NCBI RefSeq assembly: GCF_003790525.1 | Contig: NZ_CP033635.1 | Direction: 5' to 3' (one strand) | Source of the DNA: Escherichia coli | GTDB lineage: Bacteria > Pseudomonadota > Gammaproteobacteria > Enterobacterales > Enterobacteriaceae | DNA length: 64,000 bases | Shown: positions 24,601-54,363 of the stretch, piece after piece | How positions within the stretch are numbered: the first letter of the stretch is position 1 | Layout: each line of letters begins with the position of its first letter | Notes under the pieces: model-generated | Told to the model about the DNA's origin: nothing | Seen by the model: the letters and a program-made list of their open reading frames with translations, nothing else | Databases searched by the model: none | Position numbers and translations under genes: made by a program

Positions 24601-25661
24601 TTTCAGGGGATAGTAGTGTGTTAAGACTCCGGCTTCTTTTGACTGCTGTTTTAATGCTGTGGGGATTTCATGCCGCCGCTTATACCGGGCAGTGTCATAC
24701 CACTCAGGGGAATCCGTATATTGGCGTCAATTTTGGCGTTAAAACCCTGGAGGAGGAAGAGAATACGGCTGGAAAAGTCAAAGATGAATTTTATCAGTGG
24801 AGTGAATCGAATGATTATTATGTTTCCTGCGATTGCGATAAAGACAATGTCAGAAGTGGTCTATGGGCATTCGCTGCGGATTCTCCGTTAGTTTATTTGG
24901 GCGACAACTGGTACAAAATTAACGATTATCTTGCCGCAAAGGTGCTATTAGGAGTGAAAGGTAACACACCTTCGGCCGTACCTTTTGAAAATCTCGGTAC
25001 AGGAAGTGATACCCGATGGCATATTTGCGATCCCGGTGGTCAACGTTTGGGCGGCAAGGGGGCAAGCGGCAATAGCGGAAGTTTTTCACTGAAAATATTG
25101 CAGCCGTTTGTCGGTTCGGTCGTCATTCCTCCTATGGCGCTGGCGCGACTATATGAGTGTTACAACATACCCGCAAGTGATTCCTGCACGACTACAGGTA
25201 CACCGGTTTTAGTGTATTACCTGTCTGGTACGATTAATTCACTTGGCTCATGTTCTGTCAATTCTGGAGAGACAATAGAGGTTGATTTGGGGGATGTATT
25301 TGCTGCCAATTTCCGTGTTGTAGGGCATAAACCGCTTGGATCCAGAACGGCAGAACTCTCAATTCCAGTCAGGTGTAATACCGGAAACGCAGAGCTGGTT
25401 AATGTTAATTTGAGTCTGACGGCAACCAGTGATCCCGATTATCCTCAGGCAATCAAGACATCACGACCAGGTGTCGGTGTTGTGGTCACCGACAGCCAAA
25501 ACAACATTATTTCGCCTGCCGGTGGCACACTGCCGCTATCCATCCCTGACGACGCGGACAGCTTCGCTCGAATGAATGTTTATCCGGTCAGCACGACAGG
25601 TGTACCACCGGAAACCGGGAGCTTTGAAGCCACAGCAACGGTGAGAATAAACTTTGACTGA
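24591..25661 (+). CDS. elfG: Fimbrial tip adhesin-like protein ElfG (YcbT), 356 aa
   Basis: Two-domain fimbrial protein (lectin-like N-terminal part plus pilin domain); 10-nt overlap with elfC. Confidence 0.88.
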
Positions 25662-25672
25662 TATGTGAACGT

Positions 25673-26215
25673 ATGAAAAAGAACACAATATTTCAAGTCG
25701 TTATCTTATCATTCACTTTGCTTTATATGCATGTCGGGATAGCTGGACCTGAACAAGTCAGTATGCATATTTATGGTAATGTGGTCGATCAGGGCTGTGA
25801 TGTTGCCACCAAAAGTGCATTACAAAATATTCATATTGGTGATTTTAATATCAGTGATTTTCAGACCGCGAATACCGTAAGCACTGCTGCTGATTTGAAT
25901 ATCGATATCACCGGTTGTGCCGCTGGTATTACTGGCGCGGACGTCCTTTTTAGCGGCGAGGCTGACACCCTTGTGCCGACACTGCTCAAATTAACTGACA
26001 CAGGCGGAAGCGGTGGTATGGCAACGGGGATTGCTGTGCAAATTCTTGATGCGCAAAGTCAGCAAGAAATCCCGCTCAATCAGGTCCTACCTCTTACGCC
26101 CTTAAAAGCCGGGGATAACACACTCAAATATCAACTTCGTTATAAGTCCACAAAGGCGGGAGCAACGGGCGGTAATGCGACGGCGGTTCTCTATTTTGAT
26201 CTGGTTTACCAGTGA
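25673..26215 (+). CDS. ycbU: Fimbrial-like minor subunit YcbU, 180 aa
   Basis: Pilin-like with signal peptide and C-terminal Y-rich strand (LYFDLVYQ). Confidence 0.88.
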   Translation: MKKNTIFQVVILSFTLLYMHVGIAGPEQVSMHIYGNVVDQGCDVATKSALQNIHIGDFNISDFQTANTVSTAADLNIDITGCAAGITGADVLFSGEADTLVPTLLKLTDTGGSGGMATGIAVQILDAQSQQEIPLNQVLPLTPLKAGDNTLKYQLRYKSTKAGATGGNATAVLYFDLVYQ

Positions 26216-27465: not shown

Positions 27466-27551
27466 TTTTTTTGCCACAGGTCAATTCCCTTTTGGTCCGA
27501 ACTCGCACATAATACGCCCCCGGTTTGCACACCGGGAATCCAGGAGAGTTC

Positions 27552-28562
27552 ATGTACTACCCCTTCGTTCGTAAAGCCCTTTTCCAGCTCGATCCAGAGC
27601 GCGCTCATGAGTTTACTTTTCAGCAATTACGCCGTATTACCGGAACGCCGTTTGAAGCACTGGTGCGGCAGAAAGTGCCTGCGAAACCTGTTAACTGCAT
27701 GGGCCTGACGTTTAAAAATCCGCTTGGTCTGGCAGCCGGTCTTGATAAAGACGGGGAGTGCATTGACGCGTTAGGCGCGATGGGTTTTGGATCTATCGAG
27801 ATCGGTACCGTCACGCCACGTCCACAGCCAGGTAATGACAAGCCGCGTCTCTTTCGTCTGGTAGATGCCGAAGGTTTGATCAACCGTATGGGCTTTAATA
27901 ATCTTGGCGTTGATAACCTCGTAGAGAACGTAAAAAAAGCCCATTATGATGGCGTCCTGGGTATTAACATCGGCAAAAATAAAGATACGCCGGTGGAGCA
28001 GGGTAAAGATGACTATCTGATTTGTATGGAAAAAATCTATGCTTATGCGGGATATATCGCCATCAATATTTCATCGCCGAATACCCCAGGACTACGCACA
28101 CTGCAATATGGCGAAGCGCTGGATGATCTCTTAACCGCGATTAAAAATAAGCAAAATGATTTGCAAGCGATGCACCATAAATATGTGCCGATCGCAGTGA
28201 AGATCGCGCCGGATCTTTCTGAAGAAGAATTGATCCAGGTTGCCGATAGTTTAGTTCGCCATAATATTGATGGCGTTATTGCAACCAATACCACGCTCGA
28301 TCGTTCTCTGGTTCAGGGAATGAAAAATTGTGATCAAACCGGTGGCTTAAGTGGTCGTCCGCTTCAGTTAAAAAGCACAGAAATTATTCGCCGCTTGTCA
28401 CAGGAATTAAACGGTCGCTTACCGATCATCGGTGTTGGCGGCATTGACTCGGTTATCGCTGCGCGTGAAAAGATTGCTGCGGGGGCCTCACTGGTGCAAA
28501 TTTATTCTGGTTTTATTTTTAAAGGTCCGCCGCTGATTAAAGAAATCGTTACCCATATCTAA
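27552..28562 (+). CDS. pyrD: Dihydroorotate dehydrogenase (quinone), 336 aa
   Basis: Matches PyrD from [21 protein letters not shown]; class 2 DHODH. Confidence 0.95.
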
Positions 28563-38097: not shown

Positions 38098-38352
38098 TTA
38101 TAAAGATTTGTAAATATAACCGCCTCCGGTATGTTGCCTGAGGCGGTTTTTTTGTCTCTAACGTGCGGAAAAAGTTGTTCCTCTTCACATTTTTTGTACA
38201 ACTGACATGCCCGTGTAGCTCACAAATATGACAGTGGCGTGAATTTTGCGCATTGACGGCAGTTATGATTCGCGGTATTGCTTAACTGTGATTGCACATT
38301 TAGTAATCACTGTTTTCTTTTCCACCAGAAACCAGTATGAGGGAAACGAGGC

Positions 38353-38520
38353 ATGAAGAGACAAAAACGAGATCGCCTGGAACGGGCACATCAACGTGGT
38401 TATCAGGCCGGCATCGCCGGACGCTCAAAAGAAATGTGTCCCTATCAGACGCTGAATCAAAGGTCACAATGGCTGGGAGGCTGGCGAGAAGCCATGGCGG
38501 ACAGGGTAGTAATGGCCTGA
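38353..38520 (+). CDS. rmf: Ribosome modulation factor, 55 aa
   Basis: Translation MKRQKRDRLERAHQRGYQAGIAGRSKEMCPYQTLNQRSQWLGGWREAMADRVVMA matches Rmf; the overlapping 65-aa ORF in the track is in another frame and is rejected. Confidence 0.93.
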   Translation: MKRQKRDRLERAHQRGYQAGIAGRSKEMCPYQTLNQRSQWLGGWREAMADRVVMA

Positions 38521-38537
38521 TTCTGTCTCTTTAAAAA

Positions 38538-38570
38538 GAAACCTCCGCATTGCGGAGGTTTCGCCTTTTT
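38538..38570. terminator. Bidirectional terminator between convergent rmf and fabA
   Basis: Stem cctccgca...tgcggagg flanked by A-run and T-run. Confidence 0.7.
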
Positions 38571-38589
38571 ATACTCTGTCTGATTATTA

Positions 38590-39108
38590 TCAGAAGGCAG
38601 ACGTATCCTGGAACAGACCGACTTTCAGGTCGCTGGCGGTATAGATCAGACGACCATCAACCAGCACTTCGCCATCTGCCAGACCCATAATCAGACGACG
38701 ATTAACAATGCGTTTAAAGTGAATACGGTAGGTTACTTTTTTCGCTGTCGGCAGTACCTGACCAGTGAATTTCACTTCGCCAACGCCCAGCGCGCGGCCT
38801 TTACCTTCGCCGCCCAGCCAGCCGAGGTAGAACCCTACCAGCTGCCACATTGCGTCCAGGCCCAGGCATCCCGGCATAACCGGATCGCCAATGAAGTGGC
38901 ATCCGAAGAACCACAGATCCGGATTGATATCCAGCTCTGCTTCAACATACCCTTTGTCGAAGTTACCACCCGTTTCGGTCATTTTGACCACACGGTCCAT
39001 CATCAGCATGTTCGGTGCTGGCAATTGCGGGCCTTTAGCGCCAAACAGTTCACCGCGACCAGAGGCAAGAAGGTCTTCTTTTGTATAGGATTCGCGTTTA
39101 TCTACCAT
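38590..39108 (-). CDS. fabA: 3-hydroxydecanoyl-ACP dehydratase/isomerase, 172 aa
   Basis: Matches FabA from [30 protein letters not shown]; the ORF-track 238-aa extension runs through the promoter and is rejected. Confidence 0.95.
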
Positions 39109-39146
39109 GTTCTCTGTAAGCCTTATTTTATTGAAGCACGCAGGAT

Positions 39147-39164
39147 AGCTAACACGTGTACGCT
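39147..39164 (-). promoter_or_regulatory. FabR operator in the fabA promoter
   Basis: 18-bp palindrome agctaacacgtgtacgct (reverse complement AGCGTACACGTGTTAGCT) matching the FabR box. Confidence 0.75.
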
Positions 39165-39165
39165 G

Positions 39166-39182
39166 AACAAGTCCGATCAGTT
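39166..39182 (-). promoter_or_regulatory. FadR activator site in the fabA promoter
   Basis: Minus-strand AACTGATCGGACTTGTT matches the FadR consensus (AACTGGTCNGACCTGTT) at the expected -40 position; it overlaps the ycbZ stop codon. Confidence 0.7.
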
Positions 39183-40937
39183 CGGAATAAACCAGTTCAG
39201 CCAACGTAATGGCCATGGAAAACGGTGACGTCCTTCCTGTTGCGATGCTTGTGCGATACGTTCCTGGATGGTTTGCATCAGCGTCGTTTGGCCTTCGCCA
39301 TCCCACACCAGATTTAATAATAACGGCAGTGCGTCAGTCACATCGTCTACTGCCCAGATGGTGAATTTGCCTTCTTCTACCGCTTTCACCAGTTCACTGT
39401 GAAGACTTAAATGGCGAACGTTAGCAGTGGGGATAATGACACCTTGTTTCCCCGTTAACTCACGTTGCTGGCAAATAGCAAAGAAGCCTTCGATTTTCTC
39501 ATTTAAACCACCGACTGGCTGGGCGCGACCGAACTGATCGACTGAACCTGTGATAGCGATACTCTGATTCACCGGCACATCGGCGAGGGCGCTGATCAGG
39601 GCGCAGAGTTCAGCCATCGAGGCACTATCGCCATCCACTTCACTGTATGACTGCTCAAATGTCAGCGATGCTGAGAAGGGGATCTGTTGCTCAAGCTGTA
39701 GTTCCGACATCAGGAACGCTTGCATGATCATCATCCCTTTCGCATGGATATTGCCGCCAAGCTCCGCTTTGCGTTCGATGTCGGTGAATTCACCATCGCC
39801 AATATGCACAACGCAGCTAATGCGAGAAGGTTCGCCAAAAGCGCGTGGATGACCCGGAAATTCAATGACCGAAAGGGCGTTAATTTGCCCGATGCGTTCG
39901 CCTTCGGTTTCAATCAGGATTTGCTCCTGAAGGATCTCATCCTGCATGCGTTCAGCGAGGAAACCTTCACGCCATTCACGCTGCTGCAGCATTAAGTTTA
40001 GCTGCTCGCCGGAGAAGGTGTCGCCATCGCACAGGGAGGCGACCTCTTTACACTGGCGGAGGATCCACTGCGGGCTAAGCGGAAGTGTTTCTTGTTCACC
40101 GGTGTAGCGGGCTGCTTCGCGGATAAGTACTGGCCAGGCATCCGCTCCCGGTGCAGGTAAGTGATTATGTCTTGCGGTCAATGTTACCCAGCGACACCAC
40201 TGGCTTACTGACTCCGCATCGACAATCTGCAGAGTATCTTCAAATTCGCTATAAATAGCCTGCTCTGAAAGCTCTGGTTCCATCTCCTGGAAATCAGCCA
40301 ATGATTCACGTTCGCCTACCAGAATGACTTTCAGCTTCAATGGCATCGAAGGCACAGAGACGGGGAGAGGGCGCGACTCATCAAACGCAACCCAGTCAAA
40401 ACGCTCGCGGTTAACGATATTTTTCAGCCGCATCCACAGCAGAGGTTGCGCCAGCAGTGTACGCAAAGAGATGATGAGAATACCGCCATTTGCCTGATGC
40501 ACCAGACCAGGCTGCAGGGTAATGTCGCCATTAAACTGGCGCAGGCAGCCAAAGAGTTGTTCCGCTTCTACCCAGTCGGCAGCGACAACTTGCGTTAAAG
40601 TCGCAAAATTATCATCTGCACTCACTGCGTTACGTAAGCGGATGGTGTGCCCGGAAACCTCATAGTGACAGCCCACCAGTTGGCCTGCATCGCTTTGTAG
40701 CGCACGCGCGGCATCGGCAATAAGATTCAGATACTCAGACTCTTCCGGGGCCTTCGCCAGCATAAAAGAGGAGGATGCTCGCGTATGCAGCAACTGCTCC
40801 AGCGCAAATTGCAGTCGCGGTTGAGTATCACTGAATAAAGGATCGTTTTCGTCAATCAAATGTGGCTGAGCAAATATTTCCTGATAGCTATCGGTATCAG
40901 GAACCAGGTCACGCCATGCAAGTTTCGTAATGGTCAA
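39177..40937 (-). CDS. ycbZ: Lon-like protease homolog YcbZ, 586 aa
   Basis: C-terminal Lon S16 proteolytic domain with the catalytic serine in DGDSAS and the partner lysine in GGLNEKIEG; no canonical Walker A (GxxxxGK[ST]) visible in the N-terminal part. Confidence 0.9.
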
Positions 40938-54275: not shown

Positions 54276-54363
54276 TGGCGGAAGCGCAGAGATTCGAACT
54301 CTGGAACCCTTTCGGGTCGCCGGTTTTCAAGACCGGTGCCTTCAACCGCTCGGCCACACTTCC
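54276..54363 (-). tRNA. serT: tRNA-Ser (UGA anticodon), 88 nt, class II tRNA with long variable arm
   Basis: Minus-strand sequence GGAAGTGTGGCCGAGCGGTTGAAGGCACCGGTCTTGAAAACCGGCGACCCGAAAGGGTTCCAGAGTTCGAATCTCTGCGCTTCCGCCA: acceptor stem pairs, anticodon loop CT-TGA-AA, encoded CCA end. Confidence 0.93.

Follow-up and report, generated by a model that had tools for sequence, protein, structure and literature searches.

The stretch of Escherichia coli DNA analysed here, 64,000 nucleotides of contig NZ_CP033635.1 (assembly GCF_003790525.1) and referred to below as the window, carries fabA on its minus strand (coding sequence 38590-39108, ATG at 39108..39106, leader 39134..39109), with rmf on the plus strand on one side and, on the other, ycbZ, which encodes a Lon-like AAA ATPase and is also read from the minus strand (39177..40937). 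The fabA coding sequence and leader were assigned from the open-reading-frame list with its translation together with the RefSeq annotation of identical DNA, ycbZ from the open-reading-frame list together with that annotation, and rmf from the annotation. Bases 38300-39700 are 100% identical to those of E. coli IAI39, SMS-3-5 and CE10, and the 1.4 kb surrounding fabA is 95-99% identical to most other E. coli. The rmf-fabA-ycbZ arrangement is general in the species, with 5425 of the 5426 complete genomes matching a 1401-bp query over at least 80% of its length. Between the convergent rmf and fabA genes we observed an 11-bp GC-rich hairpin, GAAACCTCCGCATTGCGGAGGTTTC (38538-38562), with T-runs on both strands, which looks like a bidirectional intrinsic terminator. 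Rfam families matched the whole window in only two places, a PyrD leader at 27484-27557 (plus strand, 97.9 bits) and one tRNA at 54279-54363 (minus strand).

The element of interest occupies the 68-bp junction between ycbZ, the upstream neighbour of the operators, and fabA, the downstream gene. Written on the fabA coding strand, this junction reads ...TTTATTCCG AACTGATCGGACTTGTT C AGCGTACACGTGTTAGCT ATCCTGCGTGCT TCAATAAAATAAGGCTTACAGAGAAC ATG. A preliminary description of the locus had proposed an 18-bp palindrome with a perfect core beside a 17-bp FadR-like site, the pair being placed for dual control of unsaturated fatty acid synthesis. Both motifs are present on the minus strand, 39-75 nt 5' of the ATG of fabA (39108): the FadR-like site at 39182..39166 and the palindrome at 39164..39147, separated by the single base C at 39165. 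The same DNA has been used in published work. Positions 39136-39191 (minus strand) match exactly, over 56 bp, the oligonucleotide fabA_ec-BD-F (PMC4537474 Table 2), which was used for FadR gel shifts and on which the FadR site and the FabR palindrome are both marked. FadR proteins of three species shifted an E. coli fabA probe (PMC4537474), and the FadR site of the window is expected, from the literature on identical probe DNA, to be bound by FadR. The proposed placement for dual control is borne out by this identity with the published probe and by the position of the two sites in the promoter, which is described below.

The FadR operator, AACTGATCGGACTTGTT (39166..39182, minus strand), agrees with the published 17-bp consensus aaCTGGTCnGACC(T/A)Gtt (PMC9329746) at 14 of the 16 specified positions. 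It is the sole match to this consensus in the window at two mismatches or fewer; the chance expectation for such a match is 0.025 per window, and it was seen in 4 of 200 first-order Markov simulations. We also scored the window with a weight matrix made from five fad-gene operators (fadL sites 1 and 2, fadD sites 1 and 2, and fadBA), none of them from fab genes, whose sequences were taken from the primer table of PMC4259882. The motif scoring that the preliminary description had suggested as a check supported the FadR site: the symmetrised fad-operator matrix placed it first of 127,968 window positions, with a score of 17.6, where the training sites themselves scored 9.4-18.0. It came only fourth when the matrix of five sites was left unsymmetrised. 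The top match of the unsymmetrised matrix (GTCTGGTACGATTAATT, 25223-25239, plus strand) and the runner-up of the symmetrised one (ATCAGGTCCTACCTCTT, 26079-26095) each lie within a long open reading frame. We dismissed both as operators and regard them as most likely chance matches, because of this location and because a matrix of five sites is overfitted.

The FabR operator, AGCGTACACGTGTTAGCT (39147..39164, minus strand), was fairly characterized as a perfect-core palindrome. It has a perfect 8-bp core, ACACGTGT (39152-39159), and outer arms AGC/GCT, so that seven of its nine pairs are symmetric. It includes the published FabR core ACAnnTGTnnnnT (PMC4804515) and shares 14 of its 18 bases with the fabB operator GGCGTACAAGTGTACGCT; no other site in the window comes within three mismatches of it. 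The site thus has what is expected of a FabR operator, namely an 18-bp palindrome with the core ACAnnTGT, GC arms and likeness to fabB. In Salmonella, ChIP-qPCR has shown FabR bound in vivo to the promoter of fabA (PMC4804515). Palindrome symmetry by itself was not significant: the window contains 35 such 18-mers, and first-order Markov simulations gave 30.6 +/- 5.4. Sequences that differ from the fabB FabR operator at no more than four positions are expected about 0.5 times in a window, so that this score alone is weak evidence. The individual signals are moderate only, that of FadR being the stronger. What makes the element significant is not symmetry but the identity of its parts to known operators, their juxtaposition, their position and their conservation across species.

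The position of the two sites was established from a mapped transcription start. The fabA entry of the genome-wide table of Kim et al. 2012 (PMC3415461 supplementary file 2) places the MG1655 start site at 1015720 and the coding sequence at 1015175-1015693, giving a leader of 27 nt. The promoter string of the same entry, CCGAACTGATCGGACTTGTTCAGCGTACACGTGTTAGCTATCCTGCGTGCT (PMC3415461 supplementary file 2), is an exact match to window positions 39185..39135. The major fabA start site (+1) therefore maps to 39135 on the minus strand, 27 nt before the ATG. Measured from this position, the FadR operator spans -47..-31, with its centre at -39, and the FabR operator spans -29..-12. Both operators hence lie within the promoter and not in the leader, which, on the evidence of that table entry, settles in favour of the preliminary description the start-site comparison that it had named as a check.

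A core promoter can be read at the corresponding distances. The -10 hexamer TATCCT (39142..39147, minus strand; -12..-7) takes as its first T the last base of the FabR palindrome, so that the FabR site overlaps the core promoter. The -35 hexamer TTGTTC (39165..39170, minus strand; -35..-30), which we infer from the 17-bp spacing to the -10 hexamer and the mapped start site, overlaps the FadR site at its 3' end and takes in the single C of the gap. The arrangement is that of a sigma-70 promoter with a spacing in the range of 16-18 bp: TTGTTC, 17 bp, TATCCT, 6 bp and +1 at 39135. A strict sigma-70 consensus scan of 38300-39500 reported no promoter. This result follows from the -35 hexamer matching TTGACA at only three of six positions and is not evidence against a promoter; a weak -35 fits one that depends on an activator. 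The layout agrees with an earlier description of FabR over the -10 and FadR over the -40 region (PMC3462791), the latter being the placement expected for activation and the one found here. At fabA, two overlapping start sites have been reported, S1, which FadR activates, and the weaker S2, which FabR represses, together with a third, acid-induced start site 203 nt 5' of the ATG that is served by a CpxR box (PMC7083825). This third start would map near 39311 in the window. The CpxR box, GTAGAagaagGCAAA (39366..39380, minus strand), whose position and function are those given in PMC7083825, is intact and lies inside ycbZ, at -272..-258 from the fabA ATG.

The element is almost certainly the main sigma-70 promoter of E. 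coli fabA, on which the two known operators lie next to each other. It is an element that is already known and well characterized, with a sequence identical to that of K-12 on which the published work was done, and nothing that we found contradicts this reading. According to the literature, FadR (GntR family), sitting in the -40 region, here over a poor -35 hexamer, activates fabA. Long-chain acyl-CoA frees FadR from the DNA, so that fabA is expressed less when fatty acids are supplied exogenously. Wild-type FadR binds fabA DNA and the W60G mutant does not, and acyl-CoA releases FadR. FabR (TetR family) acts as the repressor, with unsaturated acyl thioesters strengthening its binding. Repression of fabA and fabB by FabR has been described (PMC4537474, PMC7083825), as has enhancement of FabR binding by unsaturated thioesters (PMC4804515). 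In the observed geometry the FabR site takes up the 17-bp spacer and reaches the first base of the -10 hexamer, and FabR would probably repress by denying RNA polymerase the DNA that it requires between -35 and -10. The two inputs together would set the ratio of unsaturated to saturated fatty acids, and fabB is driven by the same FadR-FabR module. The module pairs an activator released by acyl-CoA with a repressor that senses acyl thioesters, on adjacent operators, and the dual control of fabA and fabB is the classic case of the balance that E. coli keeps between unsaturated and saturated fatty acids.

Since the FadR site at -47..-31 overlaps the -35 hexamer, it could in principle serve as a repressor operator, as FadR sites do in the fad genes, where they lie over promoter elements or over the start site and transcription is repressed (PMC9329746). 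In a fadR mutant, however, fabA-lacZ expression is 2- to 2.5-fold lower, which contradicts a repressor role, and FadR is called an activator of fabA in each of the sources consulted (PMC4537474, PMC4804515, PMC7083825, PMC3462791). The poor -35 hexamer (three of six) and the empty consensus scan likewise suit a promoter that needs an activator rather than one that FadR represses. We consider repression by FadR at fabA very improbable.

Still less is to be said for the palindrome acting as an RNA hairpin, either an attenuator or a processing site, in transcripts that read through from ycbZ into fabA. A ycbZ-fabA operon with upstream promoters has been reported, so that some mRNAs include the palindrome. 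The predicted fold of 39200..39100, however, was no better than that of shuffled sequences, with an energy of -21.6 kcal/mol against -20.1 +/- 3.0 kcal/mol (z = -0.49). The palindrome moreover has no loop spacer and could form few pairs, no Rfam family matched at it, and the major start site lies 3' of it. The probability that the palindrome works in RNA instead of as a protein operator is close to nil.

Of 5425 E. coli genomes, 5384 carry an identical operator block. This constancy does not discriminate, because the adjacent 56 bp of ycbZ, used as a control block, is nearly as constant (identical in 5331 of the 5425), while the ycbZ block beyond it is identical in only 630. When the 56-bp fabA probe was searched against these genomes it was found in two places in essentially every one, the second being the fabB promoter, where the module reads CTGATCGGACTTGTT-C-GGCGTACAAGTGTACGCT, followed by ATTGT.

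We also looked across species, using a degenerate composite of the two operators, CTGRTCNGANNTGTTNNNNNNACANNTGT, with one genome per species. The scan returned at least 120 loci; as they were chosen by a pattern with fixed spacing, they are silent on species that are without the module or that space its sites differently. The loci listed come from Enterobacterales, Vibrionales and Shewanella/Parashewanella, together with two contigs of one unclassified Proteobacteria metagenome-assembled genome. Among the 120 matches listed, 119 lie directly 5' of fabA or fabB (68 and 51, respectively) and one lies elsewhere. The listed fabA orthologues share 66-100% protein identity with E. coli FabA, and the distance from the start of the match to the start codon is 67-103 nt across the fabA and fabB loci listed. 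The exceptional locus, in Acerihabitans arboris (NZ_WUBS01000007.1, 4801-4829, minus strand), has the composite module CTGATCGGACTTGTTCAGCGTACACTTGTACGCTAAAGT with neither fabA nor fabB downstream. It is followed instead by an open reading frame resembling a winged-helix regulator (about 190 aa, HxlR-like by eye) and then by a fabF-like ketoacyl synthase that is 35% identical to FabB, and this module may be a lineage-specific extension of the regulon.

Positions that the search pattern left free are informative in these alignments. Among the matches listed there are 59 distinct fabA sequences, in which the free R of the pattern is always A. The outer arms of the FabR palindrome, which the pattern did not require, show G-C in 59 of 59 and a second G-C in 52 and 58 of 59. 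Most free positions are invariant also in the 43 distinct fabB sequences among the matches listed. The -10 element T-A-n-n-n-T, which lies outside the pattern, has its T1, A2 and T6 invariant in all 102 distinct sequences among the matches listed (59 fabA and 43 fabB). TTGTTN at the -35 position occurs in all 120 listed loci, but its TTGTT is fixed by the search pattern. Palindromes as good as that of FabR are common in the window and a fabB-like match has an appreciable chance expectation, yet the possibility that the two motifs are functionless chance matches in this strain is vanishingly small: the window DNA is identical to DNA that carries published sites, the FadR match alone is rare by chance, the juxtaposition is repeated at fabB, and it is conserved across three orders with invariant free positions. 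It is this conservation, together with the published binding data, that excludes the chance reading.

The upstream gene extends into the promoter. The ycbZ stop codon TGA (39179..39177, minus strand) lies inside the FadR half-site CTGATC. We asked how often this is so among the matches listed, counting open frames with a minimum of 150 codons (complete ones have about 590) or frames running to the end of the locus. A frame ends at exactly that TGA in 50 of the 68 listed fabA loci, from three orders; these come from Enterobacterales, Photobacterium, Grimontia, Salinivibrio, some Vibrio and some Shewanella. By comparison, only one of the 52 fabB-classed loci among the matches listed has such a frame. 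The C-terminal residues of the ycbZ-length frames differ despite their common TGA. The overlap is most likely a compact gene junction kept by selection on the operator. That it is instead an ancient overlap with a function of its own, beyond a compact junction so maintained, seems to us unlikely; if this were true, termination of ycbZ translation or read-through transcription from the ycbZ promoters might, for example, be coupled to FadR-dependent initiation at fabA. The overlap is the only addition, and a minor one, to the known picture of the fabA promoter. Otherwise the analysis adds no new biology, and illustrates that real operators are recognizable from raw sequence.

The closest comparison is with the fabA promoter of E. 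coli K-12, which is identical over the 56-bp probe and the 51-bp promoter string and has the same flanking genes, spacing and start site, so that there is no difference from the window in the element itself. The second comparison is with fabB. The E. coli fabB module has the same order of sites and the same 1-bp gap as that of fabA, and its FadR core, CTGATCGGACTTGTTC, is identical. The FabR sites differ, the core being ACAAGTGT at fabB compared with ACACGTGT at fabA, and the fabB arms being GGC/GCT. As in fabA, the -10 hexamer, here TATTGT, starts at the last T of the palindrome. The fabB leader is 37 nt long (PMC7083825), and the start site 37 nt before the ATG (PMC7083825) puts the fabB -10 in a position equivalent to that of fabA. 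FabR has been reported to be dominant at fabB and FadR at fabA. The two leaders also have in common a 9-mer, CTTACAGAG, just before the ATG (39112-39120, minus strand, in E. coli fabA; positions 1566-1574 of locus L001 in fabB). Beyond close relatives this 9-mer is not conserved, being present in 5 of 58 fabA and 14 of 51 fabB leaders among the matches listed, and in view of its poor conservation we set it aside as probably a coincidence.

The FadR site may also be compared with the repressor operators of the fad genes (fadBA, fadL and fadD), with which it shares a 17-bp dyad family. The best fad operator and the fabA site score about equally on the symmetrised matrix, and the sequences differ in that the fabA site has CTGATC/GACTTG where the fad-gene operators have CTGGTC/GACC. 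They differ also in placement and effect: the fabA site lies 5' of the core site for polymerase and activates, whereas the fad operators overlap the start site and repress. For the FabR site there is a parallel in Pseudomonas aeruginosa, where DesT, a FabR homologue, has a site 5' of fabAB, so that a palindrome for a TetR-family repressor is found in the upstream region of fabA, as here (PMC3462791). In Pseudomonas, however, the putative activator site is a separate element of 30 bp that lies 3' of the DesT site, and no homologue of FadR was found (PMC3462791); the order of the sites is the reverse of that in E. coli.
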